From the NCBI GenBank assembly GCA_035563475.1, contig DATMVF010000105.1:1-56222 (forward strand): a DNA stretch of 56,222 nt, read 5' to 3'. The translations under genes and the position numbers were made by a program. This DNA comes from Rubrobacter sp. GTDB lineage: Bacteria; Actinomycetota; Rubrobacteria; Rubrobacterales; Rubrobacteraceae. This document shows positions 3,607 to 43,720 of this stretch, in pieces. The notes under the pieces are model-generated. The model saw nothing but the letters and a program-made list of their open reading frames with translations, did no database searches and had not been told where the DNA came from. How positions within the stretch are numbered: the stretch's first letter is position 1; each line of letters begins with the position of its first letter.

Positions 3607-3820
3607 AAGCTGGTCAGCAAGTCAGCACGCCGCCCGGCTTCGCCGGACGGCTTGTCAGCTAGTCAGCCTCGCTGTGGATAGCGACGGGAAAGTGCTCTGG
3701 AGAAGCGTTGTCTAGGGAGGGTTGGTCCGCAGCCGCGCACGGGTGACGAACCGAGATGCTGACAAGCTGAAATGCTGACGAGCGAAGGCCGCAAGGCCTG
3801 AGCGTGCTGAAATGCTAAGC
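3607..3820. repeat. octamer-array palindromic element, copy A
   Basis: Left arm of (N)NNTCAGC units with hairpin gccgcccggcttcgccggacggc; ~90-nt core; right arm of NGCTGANN units with hairpin aggccgcaaggcct. Confidence 0.8.
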
Positions 3821-3838
3821 CGACCGTAGGGAGGCACA

Positions 3839-5107
3839 ATGCTAGATCTCAAATTTATCCGCGAGAACGCGAAAGCAGTAGAGGAGAACACGAAAAACCG
3901 AGGAGTCGAGGCCGACGTGGGCCTGGTCGTGGAGCTGGCCGACCGGCGCTCGGAGCTCATTCAGGAGTCGAACGAGCTCAAGCACCGCCAGAACGAGATG
4001 GCCAGGAGCATCGGCAGGGAGCGCGACGAGGAGATCCGGACGAAACTCATCGAGGAGTCGCGGGCCATGAAAGATAGGTTGCCGTCCAAAGAAAGGGAGC
4101 TGCACGAGGTCGAGGAGCGGCTTAGGGACGAGCAGTCGAAGATCCCGAACATGACGCATCCCGACTCGCCCATCGGCAAGGACGACACAGAGAACGTCGA
4201 GATCCGGCGTTGGGGTGAGATCCCCGACTTCCCCTTCGAGCCGAAGGACCACGTCGAGCTAGGCGAAAGTCTCGGCATCATCGACTTCGACGCTGGGGCG
4301 AAGACCACGGGGACCAAGTTCTACTTTCTGCGCGGCGACGCCGTGCTATTGGAGCTGGGTCTGATCCGCTACTCGATGGACATCATTATGGAGCACGGGT
4401 ACCAGCCGACCATTACGCCTGACCTGGCAAGGGATCGGATGCTGGTGGGGACAGGATTTGTGCCGCGGGGACCTGAGACCCAGATCTACTCCGTTGAAGA
4501 CACGGACCTTTCCATGATCGCCACCGCGGAGATCCCGCTCGCAGGCCAGCATGCCGACGAGATAATCGATGAGGGAGACCTCCCCCTGCGCTACGCGGGC
4601 CTGTCCCACTGCTTCCGTACCGAGGCGGGTTCCCACGGCCGCGCCAGCCGAGGCCTCTACAGGGTCCACCAGTTCACCAAGGTCGAGATGTTCGCGTTCA
4701 CCACGCCGGAGCAGTCGGAGGACGTGCACGAGGAGATGGTCGGGATAGAGGAACGAATCTTCCAGGGTCTCGGCCTGCCCTACCGCGTGGTCGACATCTG
4801 CACCGGCGACCTCGGCGGCGCCGCCTACCGCAAATACGACCTGGAGGCCTGGATGCCCGGCCGCAACGATTTCGGCGAGGTGACGAGCACCTCGAACACA
4901 ACGGACTACCAGGCCCGCAGACTGGCCATCCGCTACCGCAAGGAAGGCGGAAGGCCCCAGCTTCTTCACACCCTCAACGGCACGGCCGTCGCCATGAGCC
5001 GGGCCCTGGTCTCCCTACTCGAGATCTACCAGCAACAGGACGGCTCCGTGATCCTACCCGAGGTCCTCGTTCACTACGTAGGCAAGGCACGCCTGACTCC
5101 CGCATGA
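3839..5107 (+). CDS. serS: serine--tRNA ligase
   Basis: MLDLKFIREN N-terminal coiled coil; TAEIP, CFRTEAG, GLYRVHQFTKVEMF, YDLEAWMP, SNTTDYQARR and HTLNGT motifs. Confidence 0.97.
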   Translation: MLDLKFIRENAKAVEENTKNRGVEADVGLVVELADRRSELIQESNELKHRQNEMARSIGRERDEEIRTKLIEESRAMKDRLPSKERELHEVEERLRDEQSKIPNMTHPDSPIGKDDTENVEIRRWGEIPDFPFEPKDHVELGESLGIIDFDAGAKTTGTKFYFLRGDAVLLELGLIRYSMDIIMEHGYQPTITPDLARDRMLVGTGFVPRGPETQIYSVEDTDLSMIATAEIPLAGQHADEIIDEGDLPLRYAGLSHCFRTEAGSHGRASRGLYRVHQFTKVEMFAFTTPEQSEDVHEEMVGIEERIFQGLGLPYRVVDICTGDLGGAAYRKYDLEAWMPGRNDFGEVTSTSNTTDYQARRLAIRYRKEGGRPQLLHTLNGTAVAMSRALVSLLEIYQQQDGSVILPEVLVHYVGKARLTPA

Positions 5108-5240
5108 CCCTCACAGCATCCTGTTGTCGGCGACGCTCTTGGGCTACGTGTTCTTCCAAAACTTCACCCACCGTCAGGCGGCGATCCGCACAGGTATCGT
5201 CCCACCCCGAATCGCCATTTCAGCTATAGGCGAAAACAAC

Positions 5241-5309
5241 AAGCTGTTAAGCTGACGTGCTGACGAGCGAAGCCCGAAGGGCTCAGCGTGCTGACTAGCT
5301 GAAATGCTT
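5241..5309. repeat. octamer-array element, right arm, copy B
   Basis: aagctgacgtgctgacga-gcgaagcccgaagggctcagc-gtgctgactagctgaaatgctt directly upstream of the proS SD. Confidence 0.75.
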
Positions 5310-5327
5310 ACAGAGAGGAGTGTCGGG

Positions 5328-6758
5328 ATGACAGAAGCGGTCGAGAAGCTGGTCAAGAAGAGCGAGGACCCGAGCAGGTGGTATCTGCAACTCGTGCGCA
5401 TGGCCAAGCTCGCCGACTACGGGCCCGTGCGGGGGACGTTCGCGATCAGACCCTACGGGTTCGAGATCTGGGAGCGCGTCCAGCGCGACCTCGACGACCG
5501 CTTCAAGGCCACGGGTCACAGGAACGCCTACTTCCCGCTGCTCATCCCCGAGAGCTACCTCAAGAAGGAGGCCGAGCACCTCGAGGGCTTCGACCCCGAG
5601 CTCGCGTGGGTAACCATAGGAGGCAGAGAAGAGCTGGAGGAGCGGCTTGCGATCCGGCCCACCTCAGAGAGCATCATCTGCGATTTCTACAGGAACTGGA
5701 TCCAGAGCTACCGCGACCTGCCCATCCTTATAAACCAGTGGTGCAACGTCCTGCGCTGGGAGAAGGTAACCCGACCGTTCCTCAGGTCCGCGGAGTTCCT
5801 GTGGCAGGAGGGCCATACCGTCCACGCGACGGCGGAGGGGGCGCGCGAGGAGAGCTTGCGGATGCTCGGCGTCTACCGCGATTGCTTCTACGAGGCCATG
5901 GCCATTCCCGTACTCACGGGCGCCAAGAGCCCATCCGAGCGCTTCGCCGGAGCCGTGGAGACCTACACCTGCGAGGGTTTGATGGGTGACGGACGCGCGC
6001 TGCAGGCAGCGACCAGCCACGACCTCGGGCAGAACTTCGCCCGCGCCTTCGACATCACCTTCCTCGACGAGAATCAGGACAGGGTCTATCCGTACCAGAC
6101 TTCGTGGGGATTTTCGACTCGGACGATAGGCGGTTTGATCCTGGTGCATGGTGACGACAGGGGCCTCAGGTTGCCGCCGAGGATCGCGCCGACACAGGCC
6201 GTCATCGTCCCGATCTGGCGCGGAAAGAACAAGGGAGAGGTGCGCCGCGAGGCCGAGGCTCTGCATACACAACTGAAAGACTTCGGCATCAGGATGGAAG
6301 TCGACCTCGACGAAGAGCACTCGCCGGGTTGGAAGTTCAACGAGCACGAGCTCAGGGGCGTGCCCGTGCGGGTGGAACTCGGACCCAGGGACATCGAGAA
6401 GGAGCAGGCCGTCCTCGTCCGGCGCGATACAGGGGAGAAGGAGTTCGTGGGCAGAAAGGTATTGCCCGAGCGGCTGAAGGCGCTATTGGGCGAGATCCAG
6501 GCGAATATGCTGCGGCAGGCGACGGAGTTTCGCGACGCGAACACCCGCAGGGCCGAAAGCTACGAGGAGTTCGAGGAGATCATCGCCAGAGATCGTGGTT
6601 TCGTCGTCGCCCCCTGGGACGGCATGAAGGAGACCGAGCAGAAGATCAAGGAAGATACGAGGGCCACGATCCGGCTCCTGCCCTTCGAGCGGGAGGAGGG
6701 GAAGGACCTCGTCTCTGGAAGGCCGGGCCGCACCGCCATCTTCGCCCGTGCGTACTGA
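5328..6758 (+). CDS. proS: proline--tRNA ligase, archaeal/eukaryotic type (no insertion editing domain)
   Basis: AIRPTSE, INQWCNVLRWE, FLWQEGHT, SWGFSTR and HGDDRGL motifs; C-terminal FARAY; GAGGAG SD before ATG 5328. Confidence 0.97.
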   Translation: MTEAVEKLVKKSEDPSRWYLQLVRMAKLADYGPVRGTFAIRPYGFEIWERVQRDLDDRFKATGHRNAYFPLLIPESYLKKEAEHLEGFDPELAWVTIGGREELEERLAIRPTSESIICDFYRNWIQSYRDLPILINQWCNVLRWEKVTRPFLRSAEFLWQEGHTVHATAEGAREESLRMLGVYRDCFYEAMAIPVLTGAKSPSERFAGAVETYTCEGLMGDGRALQAATSHDLGQNFARAFDITFLDENQDRVYPYQTSWGFSTRTIGGLILVHGDDRGLRLPPRIAPTQAVIVPIWRGKNKGEVRREAEALHTQLKDFGIRMEVDLDEEHSPGWKFNEHELRGVPVRVELGPRDIEKEQAVLVRRDTGEKEFVGRKVLPERLKALLGEIQANMLRQATEFRDANTRRAESYEEFEEIIARDRGFVVAPWDGMKETEQKIKEDTRATIRLLPFEREEGKDLVSGRPGRTAIFARAY

Positions 6759-6962
6759 CAGCATTTCAGCACGCCGCCCGGCTGCGCCAGGCGGCTTGTC
6801 AGCATTTCAGCCAGTCAGCTAGGTGGAGTGTACTGGGACGCTCGTGCGCCCGAGATAATGCCCGAGGAGCATTTACTCCAAGAGAGTCTGCTTTCGACTA
6901 CAAGACCTGAAGTGCTGACAAGCGGAGGCGAAGCCGGTGCGGGCTGAAATGCTGAATTGCTT
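6759..6962. repeat. octamer-array palindromic element, copy C
   Basis: Starts immediately after the proS TGA; cagcatttcagc and gctgaaatgctg are exact reverse complements; hairpin module nearly identical to copy A; ~88-nt core. Confidence 0.8.
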
Positions 6963-6996
6963 GCCGTGCGTAAGGCTCAAGAGCCTTACGCACGGC
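6963..6996. terminator. perfect hairpin, probable terminator after proS
   Basis: gccgtgcgtaaggctc-aa-gagccttacgcacggc; no U-tract. Confidence 0.6.
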
Positions 6997-7002
6997 GACA
7001 CG

Positions 7003-7031
7003 TTGACTCCAGGATCTAGAGCGGTTAGCAT
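7003..7031 (+). promoter_or_regulatory. sigma70-type promoter for the gene at 7095
   Basis: TTGACT-17 nt-TAGCAT. Confidence 0.55.
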
Positions 7032-7094
7032 TTGCGCATTAAGTGACATAACGTAGGTGCCAGACTCTAGGGCGCCTGCCTGGAGGGGGTCTCC

Positions 7095-8075
7095 GTGCGG
7101 TCTTCCGTGCTATGCGCAGCGAAGTGGTGTCTGTCGTCTGTCAGGGATAGGGATGGCTGGCGAGCGCCTCTTGGGCTTCTCGCGCTGTTGCCTGTTCTAA
7201 TCCTGCTGGCCGGAGATCACATCGCCGTCGAGGCCGAGGTGTACTCCGCGTACTCGGATCCCAAGAAGCCCGTCATCGCCGTCATCCTCTCCGAGCGGCA
7301 GAACGTCGATGAGTTCAAAGCCCATTTCGGTCTCACAGGCGGGCAGGTCGACGCCGTCCTCGCCGCGACCCGCCTCGAGAATCGGATCCTGGCACAGGAG
7401 TATGGGGAGAGCGAGCGGGTACTCGCCGCGAACAAAGGGCTTCCCAAAAGAGAGCTTGCGAAAAAGATCGTCGCCTCCGACTACGACGAGAAGGTAGCAG
7501 CGGCCGTGGCAGGGACGAAGAAGAAGATCGAGGCCATCGTGCCCGAGGATCAGAGCGCCGACCTCGAGGGTTGGGTGGACGAGCAGTGGAACCAGGAAGT
7601 TCAGGCCGCTTCCACGGAAGACTACGCTGCCACCTCCGAGTCCTACATGGTCTCCAGTCTCAGTAAAGGCGTACGGTGCAAAGTCTTCGCCACGCAGTAC
7701 ATCGGGTACACCGAGCGCGAGGTTGCCCTGCCGCATCGCAACCTCAAGCTCGGCCGCCAGCCGAGGGTTCGCATCTGGCGCGTCAGCGGCGGGCCCAGCG
7801 TGGGGCCGAGGGTCAAGGAGGTAGGACCCTGGAACACCTACGATAATTACTGGGTGCGGAACGAGGACCGAACGATGTACGAACGCGTACCGCGCTGCAA
7901 GCCACAGGCGCAGGTCGCCTACTACCAGAACTTCAACAAGGGTAAGGACGAGTTTGGCAGGAAAGTCCTCAACCCCGCCGGAGTAGACCTGACACCGGAT
8001 GTCGCACGTAGCATGGGCCTGAAGAAATACCAGAATGCCTGGGTGTGGGTACGCTTTCCCTGGGTCCACAGGTAG
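7095..8075 (+). CDS. exported protein with a C-terminal RlpA/double-psi-beta-barrel-like domain
   Basis: N-terminal hydrophobic segment LGLLALLPVLILLAG; C-terminal VALP...VKEVGPWN...NPAGVDLTPDVARSMG resembles DPBB-type cell-wall proteins; GGAGGGGG SD. Confidence 0.6.
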   Translation: MRSSVLCAAKWCLSSVRDRDGWRAPLGLLALLPVLILLAGDHIAVEAEVYSAYSDPKKPVIAVILSERQNVDEFKAHFGLTGGQVDAVLAATRLENRILAQEYGESERVLAANKGLPKRELAKKIVASDYDEKVAAAVAGTKKKIEAIVPEDQSADLEGWVDEQWNQEVQAASTEDYAATSESYMVSSLSKGVRCKVFATQYIGYTEREVALPHRNLKLGRQPRVRIWRVSGGPSVGPRVKEVGPWNTYDNYWVRNEDRTMYERVPRCKPQAQVAYYQNFNKGKDEFGRKVLNPAGVDLTPDVARSMGLKKYQNAWVWVRFPWVHR

Positions 8076-8112
8076 GAAAGACCCTTACCTTTCTCCTGAA
8101 GGCGCGACTTGC

Positions 8113-8142
8113 TTGACGAGGCGCACCCCTGTGTTTTAGCAT
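8113..8142 (+). promoter_or_regulatory. sigma70-type promoter of the met operon
   Basis: TTGACG-18 nt-TAGCAT just upstream of the riboswitch. Confidence 0.55.
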
Positions 8143-8157
8143 CAACACCTAGCGCGA

Positions 8158-8284
8158 ACCCGCATCGAGAGCGGCGGAGGGAACTGGCCCCGAGAAACCG
8201 CGGCAACCCACGGGGAGCTGTGAGCTACTCCCGCAAGGTGCCAAGTCCAGCAGGACGGTCATTACCATCCTGGAAGATGTGGGG
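8158..8284 (+). ncRNA. SAM-I (S-box) riboswitch
   Basis: P1 cccgcATC...GATgtggg; conserved ATCGAGAG, GGAGGGA-CTGGCCC, GGCAACC, GGTGCCAA-TCC and CAG...CTG elements; lies upstream of metX; downstream hairpin gcctct...agaggc at about 8297-8327. Confidence 0.93.
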
Positions 8285-8368
8285 AGAGGTGGGCAGCCTC
8301 TTCTACGAGCGGGTTGCGCGAGAGGCGTAGAACCCGATCTATAGAAGGAGGCCGCATTACTACCGAGT

Positions 8369-9493
8369 ATGACACTAGAGCCGAGGGCCGGAGCTAGCCA
8401 GGCCCCGGCCCTACGATCCCACCGGATAGGCTCCTTCCAGCCCGAACTCGGCGGAAGCCTGCGGGACGTCGCCCTTGCCTATGAGACCTGGGGCGAACTC
8501 AACGAAGCCGCCGACAACGCCGTACTGCTCGTCCACGCCCTGACAGGAGACTCGCACGCCGCGGGAGGGCCCTCCGAAGGGTACAGGCGTGGCGGTTGGT
8601 GGGACCCGATGGTCGGGCCAGGTCTGCCCCTAGACACCGAAAAATACTTCGTCGTCTGCTCGAACGTCATAGGAGGATGCTCGGGCAGCACCGGTCCGGC
8701 CTCCATAGAACCAGGGACGCGGCGACCCTACGGGATGCGCTTTCCCAGTGTCACGATCAGGGACATGGTCAGGGTACAGAGGCGCTTGCTCGACTCCCTC
8801 GGCGTACGGCGGCTGGCCCTCGTCGCCGGCGGTTCCATCGGAGGTCAGCAGGCGCTGGAGTGGGCCGTGGAGTACCCCGATTTCGTGGAGAAAGCCATAC
8901 CCGTGGCGGCCACGGGCGCTCTCGGGCCGCAGGGGATAGGGATGAGCGAGATCGGACGCCGCGCTATCATGGCCGACCCTGACTGGCAAGATGGCGACTA
9001 CTACGGCACGGGAAGGACGCCCGATAGGGGGCTCGCCATCGCCAGGATGGCTGGGATGATGACCTACCAGAGCGCCGCCGGGCAGTGGGAGAGGTTCGGC
9101 CGGAGGCCCGCCGGGCGTCCCGCGCTCTACCCCGAGTTCGGTGGGAGGTTCGAGATGGAGAGCTACCTACACTACCAGGGCAGGGAGCTCACCGGCCGCT
9201 TCGACGCCAACTCATACCTCTACCTCTCCAGGGCGATGGACCTCTACGACGTGGCAAGCGGCTACGAGTCCGAGGAAGAAGCCTACTCGCGCATCCGGGC
9301 CGAGGTGCTCTTCGTCGGGATCACGAGCGACTGGCTCTTCCCCGCCGCCGAAGTACGAGGCGCCAAAGAGAAAGCGAAAATGGCCGGCGCCGAGGCACAC
9401 TACGCCGAGATAGATACCCTGAGCGGACACGACGCCTTCCTGAAGGACTGGAAAGAACTCGAAGAAGCGATACAACCATTCCTAGCCAAATAA
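8369..9493 (+). CDS. metX: homoserine O-acyltransferase (MetX family)
   Basis: HALTGD, GWWDPMVGPG, NVIGGCSGSTGP, GGSIGG, RFDANSY and GHDAFL motifs. Confidence 0.95.
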   Translation: MTLEPRAGASQAPALRSHRIGSFQPELGGSLRDVALAYETWGELNEAADNAVLLVHALTGDSHAAGGPSEGYRRGGWWDPMVGPGLPLDTEKYFVVCSNVIGGCSGSTGPASIEPGTRRPYGMRFPSVTIRDMVRVQRRLLDSLGVRRLALVAGGSIGGQQALEWAVEYPDFVEKAIPVAATGALGPQGIGMSEIGRRAIMADPDWQDGDYYGTGRTPDRGLAIARMAGMMTYQSAAGQWERFGRRPAGRPALYPEFGGRFEMESYLHYQGRELTGRFDANSYLYLSRAMDLYDVASGYESEEEAYSRIRAEVLFVGITSDWLFPAAEVRGAKEKAKMAGAEAHYAEIDTLSGHDAFLKDWKELEEAIQPFLAK

Positions 9494-10844
<1,351 letters not shown>

Positions 10845-13136: not shown

Positions 13137-13165
13137 GTGTCAGACTTCAGGTATAAGGTTTCAGG
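13137..13165. repeat. 7-nt tandem array, single arm, after the hom stop
   Basis: gtgtcag acttcag gtataag gtttcag g. Confidence 0.5.
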
Positions 13166-15157: not shown

Positions 15158-15324
15158 GCTTCAGGCTACAGGCATCAGGCTACAGGCCTCGGTGGTATCA
15201 GCCGCTCTCTGAAGACCATCGAAGACCTCAGTAAATTCTGGCGTCGTCTCCGCCGATGCGCCTGCAAACGGCGGATACGTCACGATCCCCAGTCCTGAAA
15301 CCTGTAGCCTGATGCCTGAAACCT
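15156..15324. repeat. heptamer-array palindromic element
   Basis: Left aggcttc aggctac aggcatc aggctac agg; right cctgaaa cctgtag cctgatg cctgaaa cct (reverse-complement units); ~105-nt core; starts at a TAG stop. Confidence 0.8.
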
Positions 15325-15493
15325 TTCCCTGAAAAGTCCTGCAAAACATGCCTCAACTTGTGGTCGAGGTACCCTGGACAACTTGTAGGTCCTTGCCTTA
15401 TAGTAGCCGGCATCGGGTAACGACGGGGAGAACAGGCGACCGGCGGCGCTCTTTTTGGGGCGTCGCCGAAGCCCGGGAGGAGAGGGAGGAAGG

Positions 15494-29061: not shown

Positions 29062-29646
29062 ATGACGCGTAAAGGCGAGGCTGAACGAGAGACGGCGGAG
29101 ACGTTCGTCAGGGTGAGCTTGGAGCTCGACGGCGGGGGGGAGGCCGAGGTCGCGACGGGGGTGGGATTTCTGGACCATCTCTTGCACCTGCTCGCCCACC
29201 ACTCCGGCATGGACCTCACGGTGGAGGCCAAGGGCGATACCTGGGTGGATGACCACCACACGGTCGAGGACACGGGACTCGTGCTCGGACGCGCCTTCGA
29301 CGAGGCGCTCGGCGAGAGAAGCTCCATCACGCGCTTCGCCGACGCGAGCGCGCCCCTTATCGAGGCGCTCTCGACGGCCGTCGTCGACCTCGGAGCCAGG
29401 AGCCACCTCACGTGCAATCTCGGCCCGATGCCGGAAAAGATAGGGACCTTCGACGTAGAGCTCTTCCCCGAATTCCTGCGCGCCTTCACCCAGTACGGGC
29501 GCTTTACGCTCCACCTCAACTGCCACTACGGTGAGAACGCCCACCACAAGATAGAGTCGGGTGTCAAGGCGCTGGCCGTCGCCCTGAAGGAAGGCATCGC
29601 CCCGCGCACGGCGGGCAGCGCATCAACGAAAGGAGTTGTCGATTAA
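29062..29646 (+). CDS. hisB: imidazoleglycerol-phosphate dehydratase
   Basis: FLDHLL, DDHHTVED, NAHHKIE and STKGV motifs. Confidence 0.96.
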   Translation: MTRKGEAERETAETFVRVSLELDGGGEAEVATGVGFLDHLLHLLAHHSGMDLTVEAKGDTWVDDHHTVEDTGLVLGRAFDEALGERSSITRFADASAPLIEALSTAVVDLGARSHLTCNLGPMPEKIGTFDVELFPEFLRAFTQYGRFTLHLNCHYGENAHHKIESGVKALAVALKEGIAPRTAGSASTKGVVD

Positions 29647-29867
29647 GCATGTCAGCACGGCGCCTTTGGCGCCTCGTCAGCACGCTTCGTGCCTTTCGGG
29701 CCCTCGCTTGTCAGCTAGTCAGCTTCTTCCGTTCGGGTCTCGCCCGGCAGCGCACGACGAACCGCCACCAGCGGCAGTCGGTTACGACGCTCGTGGAGAG
29801 CCCGCGAAACGACTGGCTGAATTGCTGAGAGCCGCCGACCGGAGGGAGGCGGCGCGCTGACTAGCTT
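29645..29867. mobile_element. octamer-array palindromic element, copy D (MITE/REPIN-like insertion between hisB and hisH)
   Basis: Inverted termini aagcatgtcagc / gctgactagctt; hairpin modules; ~90-nt core; removing it restores AGGAG-ttgtcga-TTGAAC. Confidence 0.7.
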
Positions 29868-31827: not shown

Positions 31828-31852
31828 CAATCATCGTGAAACCCGATGCCCT

Positions 31853-31880
31853 TAGGGGCGGGTTTCAAACCCGCCCCTAC
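31853..31880 (-). repeat. GTAG-type REP palindrome / bidirectional terminator
   Basis: Minus strand GTAGGGGCGGGTTTGAAACCCGCCCCTA, between convergent genes. Confidence 0.75.
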
Positions 31881-34249: not shown

Positions 34250-34702
34250 ATGGACTTGCAGAGGCTGTATGCCGGATCTTTCATAGATTGGGAGGCGGTC
34301 GCCGCCTCCTGGAACAAACGAACCGTCCCCTCGCGGCTACTGCTCTTCGCCGCCCGTCGCTACCTCGACGAAGGGGGCGGTAAAGTGGAATCCGGGCGTT
34401 ATGAAGCTCTGTCATCGGCTCCGCTCCCCGAGGAGATCAAACGTGCCTTCGCCTCGCCGCCGGAACTCGACGCGCCAGCCCCGCGCCGCTGGGGCGAGTT
34501 CGTCGACGCCGCCGTCGCCGCCGAGCTGGAGATGGTCTCCTACGGTGAGAGACCGCCGCTCTTGCACGAGCTGCGGGCCGGGCTCGAACAGGCCGCAGCG
34601 GAGGCAGACCCACTCACCGAGAAGGGCAGATGGTTCCTCGCCAGGCGCGACGCCCTCCCCGGGACCGACCTGCCCGACGATCCCGGATATTTGCCCATAT
34701 AA
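34250..34702 (+). CDS. hypothetical protein
   Basis: ATG 4 nt after the PBP stop; 150 aa; probably co-transcribed. Confidence 0.65.
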   Translation: MDLQRLYAGSFIDWEAVAASWNKRTVPSRLLLFAARRYLDEGGGKVESGRYEALSSAPLPEEIKRAFASPPELDAPAPRRWGEFVDAAVAAELEMVSYGERPPLLHELRAGLEQAAAEADPLTEKGRWFLARRDALPGTDLPDDPGYLPI

Positions 34703-34880
34703 GCTAGTCAGCACGCTCAGGGTTCGCCTTCGCTTGTCAGCTAGTCAGCTCGCCGCTTCGCGGCTCTCAGCTATGCGGCCAGGACTTGCGCAAGAGAAAG
34801 CTGACGTGCTGAAGTGCTGACAAGCGCCCGACAGGGCGCGTGCTGAAATGCTGACAAGGCGCGAAGCGCCGGGCTGACAT
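34701..34880. repeat. octamer-array palindromic element, copy E
   Basis: Starts inside the TAA stop (aagctagtcagc); four hairpin modules; right arm agctgacg tgctgaag tgctgaca...tgctgaaa tgctgaca. Confidence 0.8.
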
Positions 34881-34941: not shown

Positions 34942-36387
34942 ATGGAAGCTATACCCAGTGCGAGCTATAGCCTCACCTTACGGGTCGAATTCCCGCACGA
35001 GGCGGGGGCCCTCGGGAAGATCCTGACGACTATTGGGGATGCCGACGGAATGATCGGCGCCGTCGACATAGTGCGGATGAGCCAGGACAGGACCACCCGC
35101 GACATTACAGTAAACGCCCGTGACTCCGAGCATGGCCAGCAGGTGGTTCAGGTCGTGGAGGACCTGCCCCAGGTCAGGGTCATCAACGTCTCGGACAGGA
35201 CGTTCTTGATGCACCTTGGGGGTAAGATCGAGGTCCGCTCCAAGCTCCAGATCCGCACCCGTGATGACCTCTCTATGGTCTACACGCCGGGTGTGGCGCG
35301 CGTCTGCAGGGCGATAGCCGACGACCCGGAGAGGGCTTTCAACCTCACCGTCAAACGCAATACGGTAGCCGTCGTCTCTGACGGTACTGCCGTACTCGGG
35401 CTCGGGGACATAGGACCGTGGGCCGCCATGCCTGTGATGGAGGGCAAGGCGGCGCTCTTCAAGCAGTTCGCGAACGTGGACGCGTTCCCGATCTGCCTCG
35501 ACACGAAGGATACGGACGCGATAGTCGAGACCGTGAAAAACCTGTCGCCCGCGTTCGGCGGCATAAACCTGGAGGATATCTCGGCCCCGCGCTGCTTCGA
35601 GGTCGAAGAGCGGCTGAAGAAGGACCTGGACATCCCGGTCTTCCACGACGACCAGCACGGCACGGCCGTCGTGGTTTTGGCAGCCCTGATCAACTCCCTC
35701 AAGATCGTCGGCAAGAAGGTGGAGGACCTTAGCATAGTGGTGAACGGCGTGGGCGCCTCTGGGGTGGCCTGCGCCAAGATCATCATGGCGGCTGGCGCGA
35801 AGAACATCGTGGGCTGCGACTCGAAGGGCATCGTCCACGAAGGGCGCGAGGACCTCAACGAGTCCAAGCGCTGGTTCGCCGAGAACACGAATCCAGAGGG
35901 TAGGACCGGCGACCTCTCCGACGCCATAGCAGGCACCGACCTCTTCCTCGGCCTCTCCGCTCCGGACGTTCTCGACCTCCAGCAAGTCGGGAGCATGAAC
36001 ACCGACCCGATCCTGTTCGCCATGGCCAACCCCGACCCCGAGATAAGGCCGGAGGTCGCGATGGGGAAGGCGAGGATCATCGCGACGGGCCGCAGCGACT
36101 ACCCGAACCAGATCAACAACGTGCTCTGCTTCCCGGGTATCTTCAGGGGCGCCCTCGATGTCAGGGCCCGTGAGATAGACGAGCCGATGAAGCTCGCAGC
36201 CGCCGAGGCGATCGCGAACGTCATCCCACAAGAGGACCTCTCCGAGGACTACATCATCCCTTCGGTCTTCGACGAGCGGGTCGCCCCCGCCGTCGCGGAG
36301 GCGGTCGCGGAAAGGGCCAAGGAGACGGGCATGGCCAGGCGCGTCCAGGAGCGGGCCGAGACCGGCCTGACGGTGACCAGCTTCTAA
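34942..36387 (+). CDS. NAD(P)-dependent malic enzyme with an N-terminal ACT domain
   Basis: YTPGV, DGTAVLGLGDIG, MEGKA, INLEDI, HDDQHGTA and TGRSDYPNQINN motifs. Confidence 0.93.
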   Translation: MEAIPSASYSLTLRVEFPHEAGALGKILTTIGDADGMIGAVDIVRMSQDRTTRDITVNARDSEHGQQVVQVVEDLPQVRVINVSDRTFLMHLGGKIEVRSKLQIRTRDDLSMVYTPGVARVCRAIADDPERAFNLTVKRNTVAVVSDGTAVLGLGDIGPWAAMPVMEGKAALFKQFANVDAFPICLDTKDTDAIVETVKNLSPAFGGINLEDISAPRCFEVEERLKKDLDIPVFHDDQHGTAVVVLAALINSLKIVGKKVEDLSIVVNGVGASGVACAKIIMAAGAKNIVGCDSKGIVHEGREDLNESKRWFAENTNPEGRTGDLSDAIAGTDLFLGLSAPDVLDLQQVGSMNTDPILFAMANPDPEIRPEVAMGKARIIATGRSDYPNQINNVLCFPGIFRGALDVRAREIDEPMKLAAAEAIANVIPQEDLSEDYIIPSVFDERVAPAVAEAVAERAKETGMARRVQERAETGLTVTSF

Positions 36388-36388
36388 A

Positions 36389-36425
36389 GCGAATCAGGGT
36401 GGGTCATCGACCCACCCTGATTCGC
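36389..36425. terminator. long perfect hairpin after the malic enzyme gene
   Basis: gcgaatcagggtgggtc-atc-gacccaccctgattcgc. Confidence 0.65.
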
Positions 36426-36427
36426 GC

Positions 36428-36491
36428 GGTCAGCGATCAGCCATCAGCGGTCAGCTTCCGGCAAAAGCAGTAGGCTGAAAGCTGACGGCTT
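36428..36491. repeat. short heptamer-array palindromic element
   Basis: ggtcagc gatcagc catcagc ggtcagc ... gctgaaa gctgacg gct. Confidence 0.7.
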
Positions 36492-36533
36492 ACAACGTCT
36501 GGACTTCTCCTTACTGCGGCATAGAATCTGGGC

Positions 36534-36809
36534 ATGAGCAAGCTGTGCCAGATCTTCGTTTGCGCCACGCCGGGCGAGGGACGCTGCGGCGCGAAAGGCG
36601 GCGGCGAGCTGTTCGAGATGTTTAGAGAAGAGGTGGAGCTGCGCGGCATACCGCCATCAGCCGTGCTCCGTAACGCCTGCACCCGCCGCCACGAGGAAGG
36701 TCCCGTCGTCTTCGTCTACCCCGACGACGTCTGGTATACCCGCGTAACACCCGAGGACGTGCCCGAAATAGTGGAACGTCACCTGGCGCCTTTACGAGTC
36801 GAGAGCTAG
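36534..36809 (+). CDS. thioredoxin-like [2Fe-2S] ferredoxin
   Basis: IFVC...RCGAKGG...ACTRRHEEGPVVFVYPDDVWY...EIVERHL; TGGACT/TAGAAT promoter just upstream, so the mRNA is probably near-leaderless. Confidence 0.85.
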   Translation: MSKLCQIFVCATPGEGRCGAKGGGELFEMFREEVELRGIPPSAVLRNACTRRHEEGPVVFVYPDDVWYTRVTPEDVPEIVERHLAPLRVES

Positions 36810-38083
36810 TCAGCGCGCTCCGGACTTTGGGTGCCGAAGCCGACCCTTCCCAGGGTTCGCTCCATCGCCCAGTCTGCGCCGGTGAGTATCCTGTCGCGCC
36901 GGCTCTTCATGTAGTAGAGAAGAACGCTCCTGTAGAGTGCCTGTGCCGCGGGGCCTCGCAGCCTGAGACCGACGGCGTCTGCCACGGCGCTCTCCGGGCC
37001 TAGGCTCACCACGTAGCCCCGGTCGAAGAAGCGGAAAGGCGGCCTGCCCCGCTTGCTCCCTGCGCCGCGGAGGCGGCGCTTGAGGTCCCGCGCCACCCAC
37101 GGTCCCTGTTGCACGGCGACGGAGGCGGTGGGGGGCAGGGGACCGAGGCGCGGATCGGTGTAGACCCCGGCGTCACCGAGCACGTAGACCTCGGGGTGAC
37201 CAGGCAAAGTGAGGTGCTCGCCCACGTGTGAGCGGCCCGCCGCATCGTGCTCCCCCGGCAATCCTCTCACCAGTGGCGATGCCTCCACGCCGGCCGTCCA
37301 AACCCTGGTGCCCGCCTTCAGCCAGTCTTCGCCGGCGAAGACACCCTCGGCGCTCGCCGTCTCTACGGGGGTGTTCAGGCGCACTTCGACCCCGAGTCCC
37401 GTGAGCGTCTTCCTCGCGACGCTGTCGAAGTAGGGGTCTAGCCAATCCATCAGCCGGTGCTTAGCCTCCAGAAGCACGACCCGCGGTTCTTCGGACGGCC
37501 TGCGATGGGAGCGTTTCCCGAGATAGTCGAAGAGGGCGGCCACCTCGGCGGCGACCTCGACGCCCGTCGCCCCACCACCGACGATGGCAACGGTCAGGGT
37601 GCCCTGTGGCGGCCGGGGCCCAGGGCTCGTGGCCAGGCGCCAGGCACCGCCCAGGGCGGTGCGCAGGCGCAGGGCATCGTCCAGGCTCCAGAAGGAGTGG
37701 AAGTAGCCCGCCAGCCGCGGTCCGGGCTCGGCGGCGACGCTGCCAGGGTTGAGGACCAGATACTCGTAGCCGACGGGGCCTTCAGAAGTCTCGAGGGTCT
37801 TCCTGGCGAGGTCTATACCCGAGACTTCCGCGTGCAGGAACACGCAGTCCCCGGCGCACAAGGGCGCGATAGGTGAGGTTACGGTCCTCGGATGCACCCG
37901 GCCGACCGCGACCTCGTGGATCAGGGGCACGAAAGCGTACTCTTCCCTGCGGTCGATCAGCAGGGTCTCGCCTGGTTTTCGCAGGGCCGGAGGGAGGTGC
38001 CTGAGCAGGGAGGCTCCCGCGAATCCGGCGCCGAGGACGACCACGCGCGCGCTGCGCCGGATGCTCACGCTTCGTTCCGGCAC
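36806..38083 (-). CDS. NDH-2-like FAD-dependent oxidoreductase
   Basis: GAGFAG, GGGATGVE, WTAGV, LGD and ASVAVQQG motifs. Confidence 0.85.
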   Translation of the reverse strand: MPERSVSIRRSARVVVLGAGFAGASLLRHLPPALRKPGETLLIDRREEYAFVPLIHEVAVGRVHPRTVTSPIAPLCAGDCVFLHAEVSGIDLARKTLETSEGPVGYEYLVLNPGSVAAEPGPRLAGYFHSFWSLDDALRLRTALGGAWRLATSPGPRPPQGTLTVAIVGGGATGVEVAAEVAALFDYLGKRSHRRPSEEPRVVLLEAKHRLMDWLDPYFDSVARKTLTGLGVEVRLNTPVETASAEGVFAGEDWLKAGTRVWTAGVEASPLVRGLPGEHDAAGRSHVGEHLTLPGHPEVYVLGDAGVYTDPRLGPLPPTASVAVQQGPWVARDLKRRLRGAGSKRGRPPFRFFDRGYVVSLGPESAVADAVGLRLRGPAAQALYRSVLLYYMKSRRDRILTGADWAMERTLGRVGFGTQSPERAD

Positions 38084-38186: not shown

Positions 38187-38282
38187 GCACGGATCGCCTG
38201 CTGATGGGGTGCCGGCGGTTTAAGGGGTGTCAGGAAAACGGGGAACGACCCCTCCGGGGGCTAGAAAGGGTCCGTCTTGGTG

Positions 38283-38767: not shown

Positions 38768-40120
38768 ATGGGAACCACCTTGATAATCTTGTTCGTCGTG
38801 GTTGCTTCGATCCTCGCCGCCTCAATCGTGCTCGGGCGTGACACCAGGGAGGTAGAGAGCGCCCGTGACACGGAGTACCTGGAGCTCGAGGGGGTCTGGA
38901 TTCGCTACAACGTCATCGGCGGGGGCCCCCCGGTCGTACTCGTACACGGCTGGTTATCCTCGACCCGCATCTGGGAGCAACTCGCAGGGCGGCTGGCGCA
39001 GCGCTTCACCGTGTATACCCTCGACCTCCCCGGTTTCGGGGAGTCGGACAAACCACTCTCCGGATACGGGATACGAAACGGGAGCAGGCTTCTTTACGCT
39101 TTCTGCGCCCACTTCGGCCTGACCCACGCCAACGTCATCGGCCACGACCTCGGCGGGGCCATGGCCGTAAAGCTCGCGGCAGATCATCCCGACGTCGTCG
39201 GACGCCTCGTCGTCATCTGTGCTCCTGCCGACGAGGACCAGCTCGACCTTCCCACCCTGCTGTGGCTCGCCACCGTGCCCGTCGTCGGTCCCATCGTCTA
39301 TTCTCTGGGGCGCGCGGCGCGCCCCTTCCGCCGCCTCTGGATGCGACCCTTCGTAGCCGACTCCGACGACCTCACGGAAGAGATAGTGGACGACGCCGGC
39401 CGGTCCACGCCCGCCGCCGTCTCCAAGACCTTGAGCATCTCGAGGCGTGAGATCTCCCGCGGTAGGCTCGCCAGGCAGGCCAGGATCATAAAGATTCCCT
39501 TTCTCGTCGTCGCCGGGGAAGAGGATCAGATAGTAGACCCTCAATCGGTCGGGGTATGGGCCGAGGGCGTGGAGAGGGCCGAGATCTGCCTTATAGACGA
39601 GTGCGGCCACATGCCTATGGTGGAGCGTGTGGCCGAGTTCAACGCCCAGATCCTCGCCTTCCTGACGGGCGACGCCCGCTACCTGGATTTCGTTCACCCG
39701 GTCGCGGAGACGAAAGAAGGGGTCGAACCCGCCCGCGTCGAAGGCGGCGAGGTGGACTACGCTGCACCAGGCCCATCGGACGATACGGTGGATCTCAGCC
39801 CGCGCCCCACGGAACTCGAGTCCGAACGCGACAACGTGCCGAGGGTGGTGCGTAAACACGGAGGAAGGTATCCGGCCAGGAACCGGCCTCATCAGCCACC
39901 GGAGACATACCCTGACGCAGTCGAAGAGCAACCGGCCCCTGGCGGTCGGTCCAGACGTGAGCCTCTTGACGAGGATTTTCTACCCGACCTCCCGGATGAC
40001 CTATTCGACTGGCCCGAGACGCGGCGCGACTTCGGGTCCCGCGAGCGGCGCCAGGATGGCCCTTCGGACGGACAGGACGACGACTACCCCCCTGGTCAGG
40101 AAAACCCTCCCCGCTCCTAA
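38768..40120 (+). CDS. membrane-anchored alpha/beta hydrolase with a long acidic disordered tail
   Basis: N-terminal TM; HGW, DLPGFGES, GHDLGG, GEEDQIV and CGHMPM motifs. Confidence 0.85.
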   Translation: MGTTLIILFVVVASILAASIVLGRDTREVESARDTEYLELEGVWIRYNVIGGGPPVVLVHGWLSSTRIWEQLAGRLAQRFTVYTLDLPGFGESDKPLSGYGIRNGSRLLYAFCAHFGLTHANVIGHDLGGAMAVKLAADHPDVVGRLVVICAPADEDQLDLPTLLWLATVPVVGPIVYSLGRAARPFRRLWMRPFVADSDDLTEEIVDDAGRSTPAAVSKTLSISRREISRGRLARQARIIKIPFLVVAGEEDQIVDPQSVGVWAEGVERAEICLIDECGHMPMVERVAEFNAQILAFLTGDARYLDFVHPVAETKEGVEPARVEGGEVDYAAPGPSDDTVDLSPRPTELESERDNVPRVVRKHGGRYPARNRPHQPPETYPDAVEEQPAPGGRSRREPLDEDFLPDLPDDLFDWPETRRDFGSRERRQDGPSDGQDDDYPPGQENPPRS

Positions 40121-40740
40121 AGCTGCTTCTTCAGATACAGCCACTCCCGGATGCCCATAAACCAGGCGGCGATCAGGGATCTCTGCCGCGAGACCTCCGC
40201 GTAACCCTCGGCCTCGTAGAGTCGCAGGGCGCCGAGGTTGTTGCCCGTGACGTGCAGGCCCACGGACTTCTTGCCCGCGTCCCTGGCGAGGTCTTCCGCG
40301 GCCGAGAGCAGGCGCCGCGCCATGCCCTGGCGCCGGAAGGAGGGGGAGATCACGAGCCGTTCGATGTAAGCTTCGGAAGTGACGGAGGAGTACGTCGGGT
40401 AGGAGAGCAATGTCGTCGCCCAGACCGCCCGCGGAAAGCCGAGGTTGCGGGTGAGGGCCCTCCACAGACCGCGGGCGAGGATGTCTTCCCTGGAGACTTC
40501 CGTCCTGACGCCGATGCTGCCGGCGATCTCTCCATCTGCGTACCCTTCGACCACCAGGGAAGTCACCCCGCCAGAGGTGTGCTCCAGGCGGATCCAGCGC
40601 TCCATGACCTTGAGCGAGCGGTCCATCCTACCGCCGAAGACGTGCCTGAACTGGTCCAGGAATCCTTCCACGACGAGGGCGGCGATAGCCGGATCATCAT
40701 CAGGCCGGGCGAGGCGTATGGTGAACTGCTCGGCCTCCAT
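40117..40740 (-). CDS. GNAT acetyltransferase
   Basis: RRQGMARRLL and NLGALRLYEAEGY motifs. Confidence 0.85.
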   Translation of the reverse strand: MEAEQFTIRLARPDDDPAIAALVVEGFLDQFRHVFGGRMDRSLKVMERWIRLEHTSGGVTSLVVEGYADGEIAGSIGVRTEVSREDILARGLWRALTRNLGFPRAVWATTLLSYPTYSSVTSEAYIERLVISPSFRRQGMARRLLSAAEDLARDAGKKSVGLHVTGNNLGALRLYEAEGYAEVSRQRSLIAAWFMGIREWLYLKKQL

Positions 40741-40767
40741 CAGGATATCCTACCAGAGTCTCGACCC

Positions 40768-41565
40768 TCAGCCGATAAGCCGCCTGCGCATGATCTGGAC
40801 CGGGATCAAGGCGAGCGCTCCGGTAAACACGAGCATCCAGGCCACGTCGACGAGGACCCCTAAGGAAGGTCCCGTGGCGAGCTCCCTGCACACGTTGACA
40901 GCGTGGTAGAGCGGGGTAAACCAGGCGATCTGCGGCACCGGCGCGGGGAAGTCGTCTACGGGGAAGAAGACGCCGGAGAGCAAAAATAGCGGGGTCACGA
41001 CCAGGGTAAAGTAGTAGGCATAGAGGTCTATGCGTTCTATGAGGCTGGTGAACAGCGTGCCCATCACGCTGAACATGATGCCGATTACGAGCAGCATCAG
41101 GGGCAACAGCAGGGCCCACCACGACGTGACGAGAGGCTGCCCGAAGACGATGCCAAGCACCACTATCATCGCGAGAAACGCGGTCCCGTAGAGCGCCGCG
41201 CGCGTCCCCGCCCACAGATACTCACCACCGACCACGTCCTCCGCGTTGACGGGCGTGGTTATTATGGCGTCGTAGATCTTGTCTATCTTGAGCTTGACGA
41301 AGGTGTTGAAAGTGCTCTCGAAGGAGGCGGCGAACATGGCGTTGCTCGCCAGGAGCCCAGGGGCTACGAACTGGACGTAGGGCTGGCCGTTGATGCCTCC
41401 CTGCTGGATGAACGCCCCGAGCCCTAGCCCGAGCGCCGCCAGATAGAGGAGCGGCTCGACGAAGTTGGGGAACAAAATAGTCTTCCAATACTTCCGGAAG
41501 ATGGTGATGTTGCGCTGCCACACCCTGAACGACCCGCGGGCCGAGGGTATCCTTATCGTACCCAC
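40768..41565 (-). CDS. ABC-2 type exporter permease (NodJ-like)
   Basis: EPLLYLAALGLGLG, FVAPGL, SGVFFP and TPLYH motifs. Confidence 0.9.
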   Translation of the reverse strand: MGTIRIPSARGSFRVWQRNITIFRKYWKTILFPNFVEPLLYLAALGLGLGAFIQQGGINGQPYVQFVAPGLLASNAMFAASFESTFNTFVKLKIDKIYDAIITTPVNAEDVVGGEYLWAGTRAALYGTAFLAMIVVLGIVFGQPLVTSWWALLLPLMLLVIGIMFSVMGTLFTSLIERIDLYAYYFTLVVTPLFLLSGVFFPVDDFPAPVPQIAWFTPLYHAVNVCRELATGPSLGVLVDVAWMLVFTGALALIPVQIMRRRLIG

Positions 41566-42530
41566 TATTCCACCAGCCTCCTCCCCGTGAGCCGCAGGAA
41601 GACGTCCTCCAGTCCGGCCTGGCGGTACACGGTGTTCTCGATCTCCGTCCCCGAGTCCCGCACCCGCTCGAGGAGGGCGTCGGCGTCGTCGGTGTAGGCG
41701 AGGATCGACTCATCGCCGGTCCGCTCGACGGCGTCCGAGACGGCCTCGAGAACGGGAACGAGATCCTCTAGCGACCTGTGGTCCGTCCTGAACTCGAGGA
41801 CCTGCGGGCTGACGTGCTCTTCGACCAGCGCCCCCGGCTTTCCTTCCGCGATGATCAAACCCCCCTCCATGATGACCAGCCTGTCACACAGCCGCGCGGC
41901 CTCTTCCATGTAATGGGTGGTCAGGATGAGGGTCTTGCCCTCCTCGGTGAGCTCGCGCAACCGGTCCCAGACGAGCAGGCGGGCCTGCGGGTCGAGCCCC
42001 GTAGTCGGCTCGTCGAGGACGACGATCTCGGGATCGTTCAGCAGGGCGCGGGCGATGAGCAAGCGCCGCTTCATCCCGCCAGAGAGCTGCTCGACCGTCG
42101 CTTCGGCCTTGTCGGAGAGCTGCATGAAGTCGAGAAGCTCCTCAGCCCTCCTGCGTACCAGCTTGCTGGGAAGGTCGTAGTACCTGCCGTAGATGAGCAG
42201 GTTCTCCTCTACTTTGAGCTCGTCGTCGAGGTTGTTCTCCTGGGGGACGACCCCGATGCGGCGTTTGATCTCCCGCTCGTGGTGGTAGACGTCGAGACCG
42301 GCGACGGCGAGCTCTCCGCCAGTCGGTATCACGGCACCGTAGATCATCTTCATCGTCGTGGTCTTCCCAGCCCCGTTCGGGCCCAAAAAACCGAAACACT
42401 CTCCACCGAAGACCTCGAAGTCGACGCCCTTGACCGCCTCGAAGCCCGAGAAGCTCTTCTTCAGACCCCGCGCTTCGAGTGTCGGCTCCCCAGTCAGGGC
42501 ACCCTTGGTTCTCTCCGTCTCCGCGTTCAA
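41565..42530 (-). CDS. ABC exporter ATP-binding protein (NodI-like)
   Basis: GPNGAGKTT, LSGGMKRR, LDEPTTGLDP, TTHYMEEA and LEDVFLRLTG motifs. Confidence 0.93.
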   Translation of the reverse strand: MNAETERTKGALTGEPTLEARGLKKSFSGFEAVKGVDFEVFGGECFGFLGPNGAGKTTTMKMIYGAVIPTGGELAVAGLDVYHHEREIKRRIGVVPQENNLDDELKVEENLLIYGRYYDLPSKLVRRRAEELLDFMQLSDKAEATVEQLSGGMKRRLLIARALLNDPEIVVLDEPTTGLDPQARLLVWDRLRELTEEGKTLILTTHYMEEAARLCDRLVIMEGGLIIAEGKPGALVEEHVSPQVLEFRTDHRSLEDLVPVLEAVSDAVERTGDESILAYTDDADALLERVRDSGTEIENTVYRQAGLEDVFLRLTGRRLVE

Positions 42531-42865
42531 CCGCCAACCTCTCTATGTACTTGGGAACGTTCACCAGTCCCGACCGGCGTTTCGGACCACGCAAGTGTCG
42601 GGGAAGATCTCGGGAACGGCACATATACTACCGTATCTCGGCTCTCGGACCAGGGCCAGAGCAGCAGCGTCCTACGGAATTTAAGGCCCGCCAGGCTCAC
42701 CGCCATCGGCGGAGATACTTTGCCTACCATTAAGGAAAGTTTACTAACTACTCTACCGCTTTGTGAAAAGTGCTGTTAAAATCTCGCGCATGTTTCGTTC
42801 GGCGAAGCGGCAGCGACGCGGACCGTGTACAGCTTTTGCGCAGGTGGGAAGAACGGAGAGGGCAC

Positions 42866-43654
42866 ATGGGCAAAAGATCTGATCGACGTAAGTTCAGGAG
42901 GCGACGCAGGTGGGCCGCGTTCTTAGTGCTTTTGTCGCTTGCCCTCATGGTGTTTGGTGTAACGTTACTGACGGGCTCCCCTGATAAGCAACCGGTTGCC
43001 ACTGATGGGATAGAGAGAGCCGCCGTGGAGAGGGCGGCATCTGTGCAGGTGGCCGGGGCCCCCGAGGCTGCAAGCGAACAGAAGCGGGAAGACGCACAGG
43101 TCCTGGCCTCAGAAGAGGAGGACAAGAAGACCACGGCCGAGAAGAACGAGCCCGCTCAGAAGCCAGAGCCGAAGAAGCGGTCTACGATACCGACGCCGCC
43201 CACGAATGACCTGTGGATGTCCATCCCGGCGCTCGGGCTCTACGACAACTACGTGACCAACTCCGCGGCCGAGTCCGCGATGGATTATGGGGCCATAAAG
43301 TTGCCCCATTCGGGCTTCCCCTGGCAGGACAACGCGAACACCTACATTGCGGCTCACAGGCTAGGGTGGCCCGGTACGGCTAGCCACCATCAGTTCTACA
43401 ATCTGCCGCTTCTGGCCAAGGGGGATGTGATCTACCTCGGCGACGTCAACGGGACTACCTACACTTACGAGGTTACGGAGTTCAAAGAGATAACGCCGGA
43501 TGAAACATGGGTAACGACTCCCAAGCCGGGAAGGGATATGGTCTCGTTGCAGACGTGCATAGAGACCTTCGGTGACTACTGGACGATGGGCCCGAACTGG
43601 TACGTGCGCTACATCGTGCAGGCCGACAGGGTCTCCGTGGACGTCGCGGAGTAA
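42866..43654 (+). CDS. sortase (class D/E-like)
   Basis: N-terminal TM; YIAAHR (His), SLQTC (Cys) and VRYIVQA (Arg). Confidence 0.85.
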   Translation: MGKRSDRRKFRRRRRWAAFLVLLSLALMVFGVTLLTGSPDKQPVATDGIERAAVERAASVQVAGAPEAASEQKREDAQVLASEEEDKKTTAEKNEPAQKPEPKKRSTIPTPPTNDLWMSIPALGLYDNYVTNSAAESAMDYGAIKLPHSGFPWQDNANTYIAAHRLGWPGTASHHQFYNLPLLAKGDVIYLGDVNGTTYTYEVTEFKEITPDETWVTTPKPGRDMVSLQTCIETFGDYWTMGPNWYVRYIVQADRVSVDVAE

Positions 43655-43720
43655 GCGTTTCAGCCCGGCGCCTCTGGTGCCTTGTCAGCACGCTTCGCCT
43701 CGCTTTCAGCATTTCAGCTT
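43653..43720. repeat. octamer-array element, left arm, copy F
   Basis: Starts inside the sortase TAA: aagcgtttcagc-ccggcgcctctggtgcc-ttgtcagcac-gcttcgcctcgc-tttcagcatttcagctt. Confidence 0.75.

Follow-up and report, generated by a model that had tools for sequence, protein, structure and literature searches.

How can a family of short, gene-less DNA elements be dispersed over a genome, with its building blocks in different order and orientation, when no transposase is encoded beside it? This question is raised by a stretch of 56,222 nt from a Rubrobacter sp. (assembly GCA_035563475.1, contig DATMVF010000105.1), here called the window. An earlier note had listed six intergenic copies of an inverted repeat in it, with arms of tandem 8-nt units (octamers) and small hairpin cassettes between the units. 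All six (elements A to F) were found at or a few bases from the places given, and the note's statement that the window holds no transposase agrees with the family searches (no transposase family among 45 open reading frames (ORFs) scanned against NCBIfam or 19 against Pfam). Relatives have a gene for a four-helix-bundle protein between the same arms and cassettes, gene-bearing and gene-less forms share sites, and interiors differ between retained arms. We consider it fairly probable that the elements are gene-less forms of an arm family resembling the intervening sequences (IVSs) of 23S rRNA, in which the arms act as long-lived exchange sites while interiors and hairpin modules are overwritten by recombination between dispersed copies. 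Such an exchange of cassettes likely does not need a transposase.

Same arms with and without a gene

The studied genome (G000; 3.13 Mb in 314 contigs, 92% complete) was compared with 24 congeners (G001 onward) and with 16 genomes from other families. Genes of the PF05635 family (IVS-protein, Avd-like) occur sporadically, in 10 of the 24 congeners. The earlier note had proposed to look for a four-helix-bundle gene with these arrays on its flanks, and such a gene is found in these relatives with identical arms and hairpin modules: an intact gene (L007) and a frameshifted one (L016) are boxed by identical octamer and hairpin arms, and the other congener genes mostly have arms of 7-nt units (7-mers). 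The protein matches PF05635 with E values of 3e-33 to 5e-38 and the structure 2GSC with an E value of 1.4e-17, and its match to the Avd family PF22296 is weak and below the cut-off (E 7e-4 and 9e-7).

The type of arm follows the protein in metagenomic sequences as well. In 80 such loci, octamer arms flank every one of the 16 near-full-length homologues with 71-82% identity, in many cases with the same cassettes, and each of 7 partial homologues has at least one octamer arm; homologues at 53-62% identity are flanked by 7-mer or other arm units. A quick tree was built from 91 loci, reduced to 76 rows after 11 had been left out (alignment <85 aa) and 4 duplicates merged. The 17 octamer- or cassette-armed proteins make up one side of a branch in this tree (SH-like approximate likelihood-ratio test, SH-aLRT, 94), where L015 (7-mer arms with cassettes) is counted as octamer and the CAGG-type L002 and L013 are entered as 7-mer TCAGC. 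The octamer-armed gene is under purifying selection, with a dN/dS of about 0.13 over 78 pairs. A CCGATAA/CCGATTA motif is located 6-30 nt before the start of the four-helix-bundle gene in most Rubrobacter cassettes (L002-L016, L190-L204) and is possibly a promoter or binding site.

Gene-bearing and gene-less forms can be compared at the same site. Among the matches listed for 37 gene-bearing loci, the studied genome has a gene-less element at four sites (C72, C283, C108 and C159) that carry the gene in relatives. At C72 the boundaries of the two forms are common to the base, and at C108 and C159 the gene is found in both orientations among relatives.

The interiors of gene-less elements differ in the same manner. 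Paired elements were compared with G006 or G008 (427 kb and 460 kb, respectively) and classed by alignment score and by eye. The filler lineage was the same in 7 of the 17 comparisons; in another 7 the interior was different, and in 3 the site was empty or collapsed. At C167, C171 and C42, one or both arms are kept together with the order of their cassettes around a different interior. In three same-lineage pairs, the fillers are 69-76% identical, four-fold sites 81-82% and arms 84-98%.

According to the earlier note, copies at the same loci in all relatives, with no empty sites, would speak against a mobile family. Arms (scored by pattern) do occur at 22 of 28 orthologous sites, but the sites vary in content, and some are empty or collapsed. 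An armed element stands between hisB and hisH in 17 of 22 readable congeners (6 with octamers, 9 with CAGG 7-mers and 2 with TCAGC 7-mers); the remainder consists of G001 with 14 nt, three genomes with another gene and a truncated one. The site of element E is occupied in 5/5 congeners examined, with contents that are all different and a left boundary at the stop codon that is common to all. After proS, at the site of element C, G006 has the same filler F1 (70/93 identical), and in G019 similar outer cassettes enclose a filler of 20 nt, so that here too the arms are kept around a different interior; no arms are found there in G008, G018, G005, G003 and G015. Element B is common to G006 and absent in G008, G018, G005 and G003, and the site of element F has left arms with other cassettes in G008 and G019. 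In all genomes compared, most intergenic regions of the window hold no element. The sites are thus old and common to relatives, and it is their contents that turn over.

Within the sequences searched, the octamer family is restricted to the Rubrobacteraceae. A 19-nt arm word, with 0 to 180 matches per congener, is present in 16 of the 24 congeners and in 0/16 genomes of other families. A scan of genome contigs with at least 80 named loci gave, among the matches listed, 65 from Rubrobacter, Rubrobacteraceae or Rubrobacterales, 11 from Actinomycetota and 4 chance matches without arrays; on viral contigs, none of 4 pattern matches has arrays.

Anatomy and placement of the elements

The positions of the window elements and of two related ones with 7-mer arms are collected in Table 1.

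Table 1. Elements of the window and their parts
Feature	Position	Strand	Description
Element A, whole	3608-3818		
Element A, left arm	3608..3667	+	TCAGC octamers with one hairpin cassette; begins right after the stop of an ICMT-family gene
Element A, interior	3668..3757	.	90 nt, filler family F2; 68/89 identical to the orthologous G008 filler
Element A, right arm	3758..3818	+	GCTGA octamers; hairpin cassette with a GA/GA bulge; stops 20 nt before serS
Element B, whole	5220..5310	+	Upstream of proS; one unit left of the left arm (5220-5224), then a short filler and the right arm with its cassette (5251-5310)
Element C, whole	6758-6961		
Element C, left arm	6758..6819	+	Abuts the proS stop codon
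Element C, interior	6820..6913	.	94 nt, filler family F1; relic CAGG-type unit kept at one edge
Element C, right arm	6914..6961	+	With cassette
Element D, whole	29644-29866		
Element D, left arm	29644..29723	+	Overlaps the hisB stop codon; two cassettes
Element D, interior	29724..29815	.	92 nt, filler family F0
Element D, right arm	29816..29866	+	Runs up to the TTG start of hisH
Element E, whole	34700-34877		
Element E, left arm	34700..34779	+	Overlaps the upstream stop codon; two cassettes
Element E, interior	34780..34799	.	20-nt filler class
Element E, right arm	34800..34877	+	Two cassettes
Element F	43652..43718	+	Left arm alone; overlaps the sortase stop codon
Related paired element	15158..15330	.	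Upstream of dnaE, with arms of 7-nt CAGG-type units; octamer element at this site in G006
Related paired element	36430..36492	.	7-nt TCAGC-type arms, 18-nt filler; after the malic enzyme gene

The TCAGC-octamer dimer TCAGCNNNTCAGC has 16 matches in the window (shuffle mean 0.20, max 1). The recurring hairpin frame of the earlier note is equally distinct, as GCTGACRAG-N8-30-SKGCTGA is matched 11 times (shuffle mean 0.03), and all matches to the dimer and the frame are inside the six loci. Not every copy is complete: A, C, D and E are two-armed, but in B the left arm is reduced to a single unit beside the right arm, and F has a left arm alone. The note's octamers and cassettes stand, but the fixed classes of interior length (about 20, 28 and 92-96 nt) and the 7-mer elements of the window had been overlooked.

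In the whole genome, where the note had suggested a count of copies, 301 arms were found (148 left and 153 right), and nearly all of the 60 commonest 13-mers are arm words. When a left and a right arm <300 nt apart are taken as a pair, 118 pairs run left-to-right and 1 right-to-left. The grammar of the arms, read on the GCTGA strand, is simple: GCTGA is followed by a 3-nt linker (AAT 139, AGT 94, CTA 56, CAT 48) or by CAA, a hairpin and GT. The GCTGA core is exact in 515/528 internal units, which is partly an ascertainment effect. The arm ends are variable AGC half-units without a GTAG or CGTC tag, and arm length is not fixed.

The cassettes are almost confined to this frame, with 135 of the 138 occurrences of eight typed cassette words (13-21 nt) inside arms. 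Their stems average 4.7 bp (2.7 in shuffled sequence). They are also polar: 209/296 loops are of the G..A type on the GCTGA strand (159 of them GNA triloops) and none on the opposite strand, and the commonest internal loop is a tandem GA/GA bulge. Mini-hairpins of the GNA type have a far higher stability in DNA than in RNA (PMC13037366). Cassettes are seldom repeated within one arm (1/88 arms, 8.7 expected) or mirrored across the arms (3/82 elements, 15.1 expected). With a cassette common to both arms in merely 3 of 82 two-armed elements, the single long stem that the note had envisaged becomes a branched one: a stem is predicted, but the arms are imperfect mirrors. The folding z-scores of these predicted branched stems are -2.7 to -7.2 for elements A-E and -1.5 for F.

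Among 88 interiors of 80-130 nt from the studied genome and its relatives, 58 fall into six families and 30 are singletons. Filler F0 has 34 members in the studied genome (mean identity 68%, almost without indels), and profile matches to F0-F2 are beside arms in 108/108 cases. Changes are dominated by C>T and G>A, with no adenine bias, and the interiors decay neutrally. Several origins for the fillers were tried and rejected. Small ORFs would show a 3-nt periodicity, which is missing, and stops occur in every frame. F0 and F1 have no consensus fold above column shuffles, which argues against a structured RNA; one F2 strand scored -5.7 against -0.8, on merely 6 rows. Captured phage or plasmid DNA gave no match for the three window stretches searched, and 41 singleton interiors matched solely other elements or repeats in the sequences searched. 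As remnants of the four-helix-bundle gene, 182 interiors were searched by nhmmer and by six-frame hmmsearch, with best E values of 0.78 and 0.88.

The elements are intergenic and situated at the ends of protein genes, both in the window, where the neighbors are housekeeping genes (serS, proS, hisB/hisH, malic enzyme, sortase and fba), and in the genome, with about 150 gene-less sites per genome. Placement was scored with an analysis-specific gene caller, stops of ORFs of at least 100 codons and 3000 intergenic control positions. A stop codon is no more than 8 nt away from 110/301 arm ends, compared to 189/3000 control positions (6%), and 38 of 110 elements are found between convergent genes, compared to 250 of 1690 intergenic regions. 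Only 6/301 arms are mostly within called genes. No copy inside rRNA was met, but no 23S rRNA is assembled in this genome, so rRNA copies are not excluded.

Several further observations concern related repeats. Filler lengths in the studied genome peak by arm type, at 20 and 92-93 nt for octamers, 11-12 nt for TCAGC 7-mers and about 95-120 nt for the CAGG type, possibly through a helical-phasing or ruler constraint. Single 7-mer arms of the CAGG and TCAGC types directly follow stop codons at 3010-3062, 9494-9545 and 13137-13165 of the window, and relatives have other arm types at these places. Long terminal hairpins stand at the outer ends of 8-mer and 7-mer arms (6963-6996 and 36387-36427 in the window, about 45 loci in the genome); they typically read GCGCGG..GAAGG-loop-CCTTC..CCGC, with stem sequences that vary and pairing that is kept. 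A palindrome family with ATTCCC/GGGAAT ends (32 strand matches in the genome) is at times nested in or beside arms. A cassette-like hairpin ending in GGGAG(G) is located just before the starts of serS and metY (3819-3835 and 9520-9545), is kept in several relatives and may be the ribosome-binding site of these genes. At 36795-36830, an arm-derived stretch lies in the overlapping 3' ends of two convergent genes, where relatives have a full element.

Probable exchange between dispersed copies and its rivals

The gene, the 92-96-nt filler or the 20-nt filler, together with the hairpin modules, would likely be overwritten through recombination between dispersed copies. For the exchange itself, strands would be transferred inside the GCTGA arrays, probably in single-stranded DNA (ssDNA) where the GNA mini-hairpins could fold, and repeated or mirror-image cassettes would be purged by slippage or by palindrome cutting. 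The four-helix-bundle protein, presumably a pentamer by homology to 2GSC, may bind the arms and promote exchange or spread in trans, with the chemistry left to host recombination enzymes. The role of the protein is the weakest step of this mechanism, and we put it forward tentatively, at somewhat less than an even chance. More doubtful still is a specific version of it, a widespread transposase-free system in which the arms would be landing pads, read as ssDNA hairpins by the clade-matched pentamer, and the interior would be replaced in a homing-like manner; if so, the orphan protein family of the 23S rRNA IVSs would gain a function, and the 7-8-nt arrays of many bacteria an origin.

A number of points weigh against the favored explanation. 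All evidence is a comparison between species, in which no mobility or exchange event was observed, and different interiors could also arise by loss and re-insertion at a hot spot. Three loci that are gene-bearing in relatives (C186, C10 and C257) have no element in the studied genome, among the matches listed. The PF05635 gene is absent from that genome (at 92% completeness) and from the three most octamer-rich congeners (G006, G015 and G019), so that copy number does not track the gene. Protein clade and arm type share a host lineage, so their co-evolution is not shown, and the support for the octamer-armed side of the tree is unstarred. No similarity between fillers and the gene cassette was detectable (best E 0.78); the fillers are thus not shown to derive from it, and an origin from the gene is unsupported. 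The avoidance of mirrored cassettes weakens with orientation-aware shuffles (0/19 versus 2.4, P 0.05; 0/19 versus 1.7, P 0.11). Across the 24 genomes, the anticorrelation of octamer and 7-mer counts is not significant (rho -0.28, p 0.19), and the -0.73 obtained for a 17-genome subset is biased by selection. Finally, we know of no catalytic activity for PF05635 proteins.

The placement at gene ends and the predicted folds would also suit an RNA that is kept by the host: a transcript that folds into a long stem behind the stop codon and serves as a terminator, a 3' protector or, as in 23S rRNA IVSs, an RNase III site, with contents replaced over time through ordinary RecA gene conversion and the gene as one passenger among them. 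The arms abut stop codons, convergent gene pairs are enriched, sites persist across the genus and copies A-E fold. The arms also provide the start codon or the ribosome-binding site at hisH and serS, and IVSs with a PF05635-family protein are excised by RNase III (PMC4990558). However, the GNA loops and GA/GA bulges are on the GCTGA strand alone, so a transcript that leaves the gene would read the unfavorable strand of the first arm. The stem would moreover be interrupted, as the octamer linkers are unpaired and mirrored cassettes are avoided. Individual sites lack an element in several close relatives, and purifying selection acts on the four-helix-bundle gene. A structured-RNA family, which the earlier note had considered, is not borne out either: the elements have no Rfam match, the interiors lack a conserved fold and the loops resemble ssDNA mini-hairpins. 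At the Rfam gathering threshold, the window gave an S-adenosylmethionine (SAM) riboswitch alone (8159-8283), upstream of a metX-metY-aspartokinase operon. We regard the host-kept RNA as unlikely; it is compatible with exchange between dispersed copies except for the role of the protein.

It is considerably less likely that the family is non-autonomous and REPIN-like (a doublet of repetitive extragenic palindromes, REPs), cut and pasted as ssDNA in trans by a REP-associated tyrosine transposase (RAYT) or another HUH tyrosine transposase. The inverted ends, variable spacer, extragenic position and lack of target duplication do resemble REPINs (PMC3116915), and strand-polar ssDNA hairpins would suit an HUH enzyme. 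However, the arms have no fixed length and no fixed terminal tag such as GTAG or CGTC on a 20-40-nt palindrome, and no RAYT was found to carry them. Profile searches of the studied genome gave no match to TIGR02436, PF01797, PF13366, PF00078, PF05635 or PF01610, and no gene for a four-helix-bundle protein, RAYT, GxxExxY protein, reverse transcriptase (RT) or ISL3 transposase; GxxExxY is likewise found in 0/24 congeners. PF01797 occurs in 3 of the 24 congeners, at 5 loci, none with octamer arms. Four of these are of the IS200/IS605 type by the adjacent gene, which we take to have a TnpB-like N-terminus. The fifth is the sole RAYT-like gene found (L022 in G008), and it is flanked by a different, GTAG-tagged REP.

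Two side observations belong to these searches. The GTAG-tagged palindrome at 31852-31880 of the window is a separate REP family (55 strand matches at about 30 loci in the studied genome); its sequence also flanks L022 in G008, and no RAYT matches in the studied genome. RTs of 571-588 aa occur in 3 of the 24 congeners, one each in G020, G008 and G006 (L297-L299), and L298 resembles the RTs of group II introns and has an HNH-type C-terminus.

A miniature inverted-repeat transposable element (MITE) moved by a DDE-type transposase (ISL3- or IS630-like), with the repeat arms as cargo, is scarcely credible and largely refuted: T is common immediately outside the arms and the outer unit often provides the stop codon, with TAG enriched (75/116), but direct repeats of at least 4 nt flank 0/117 paired elements, 2-nt repeats are at chance (8 versus 7.9 expected), no end sequence is conserved beyond 2-3 nt, and the studied genome has no ISL3 transposase (other DDE families were not searched). 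What holds of the earlier description is a dispersed, non-coding and modular family with swappable cassettes and a patchy distribution between relatives.

Comparison with known systems

The closest architecture is that of the ORF-bearing 23S rRNA IVSs of Coxiella and Leptospira, which carry an S23p/PF05635 four-helix-bundle gene (PMC4990558). Here too, gene-bearing relatives encode a PF05635 protein boxed by complementary arms that are predicted to form a stem, the distribution is sporadic and the ORF has decayed in some Rubrobacter copies. The structure 2GSC, of XCC0516, belongs to the same family. In contrast to the IVSs, the Rubrobacter elements are at protein-gene ends and next to a tRNA, not in rRNA; their arms consist of tandem 7-8-mers interspersed with hairpin modules, a genome has about 150 gene-less sites and the interiors are probably exchanged.

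Dispersed heptamer arrays are known from cyanobacteria as short tandemly repeated repetitive (STRR) sequences. Others are the Xanthomonas GGGAATC and Nostoc repeats (PMC4692102) and the TAACTGA repeats of Beggiatoaceae (PMC4679880), whose origin is left unexplained in these papers; Xanthomonas genomes have 70-75 convergent inverted pairs each (PMC4692102). As far as these sources go, the arrays share with the Rubrobacter arms tandem intergenic units near ORF ends, often in convergent inverted pairs, and variability between relatives. The Rubrobacter unit differs in its 8 nt, with strand-polar cassettes, fillers of fixed length and the link to a four-helix-bundle gene, of which no counterpart was met in these papers. 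Sister families with 7-nt units are present in the genus, including the studied genome, and occupy sites of the octamer family in relatives. Elhai et al. (2008) reportedly described very small mobile elements of Nostoc (SDR), hairpin modules of 13-27 nt inside tandem repeats. The Rubrobacter modules differ from these in lying almost solely within arms, in a fixed frame and orientation.

REPINs and the mosaics of REPs (bacterial interspersed mosaic elements, BIMEs), with their RAYT transposases (PMC3116915, PMC3733652), are similar in their non-coding inverted ends, less conserved spacer, extragenic location, hundreds of copies and mosaic build. The Rubrobacter arms differ in having neither tag nor RAYT, in their variable length and in sites that are common across species instead of being randomly spread. 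Homology of the accessory protein Avd of diversity-generating retroelements (DGRs) to PF05635-type proteins has been stated (PMC10053308), in line with the weak PF22296 match, and DGRs too overwrite a target with a homologous copy. Here, however, no RT is found in the studied genome, adenine mutagenesis is absent and the congener RT examined is group II intron-like.

In the literature available to us (subscription journals not covered), no work was found that links PF05635 proteins to tandem-repeat arms or describes these Rubrobacter repeats. New are the swap of interiors while arms are retained, the finding that cassettes are strand-polar and non-redundant, and the negative result on filler origin. 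Two loose ends meet in this family: for PF05635 proteins a structure is known but not a function, and dispersed arrays of 7-8-nt repeats, over-represented in many genomes, have no known source. With a matched protein clade, a strand-polar arm grammar and an allelic series at fixed sites (gene, long or short filler, empty), the family makes binding and exchange directly testable. Its architecture recalls an IVS cassette and its distribution a REPIN, but it fails a defining test of each. If the arms are exchange sites, they would constitute a recombination landing pad outside the named element classes.

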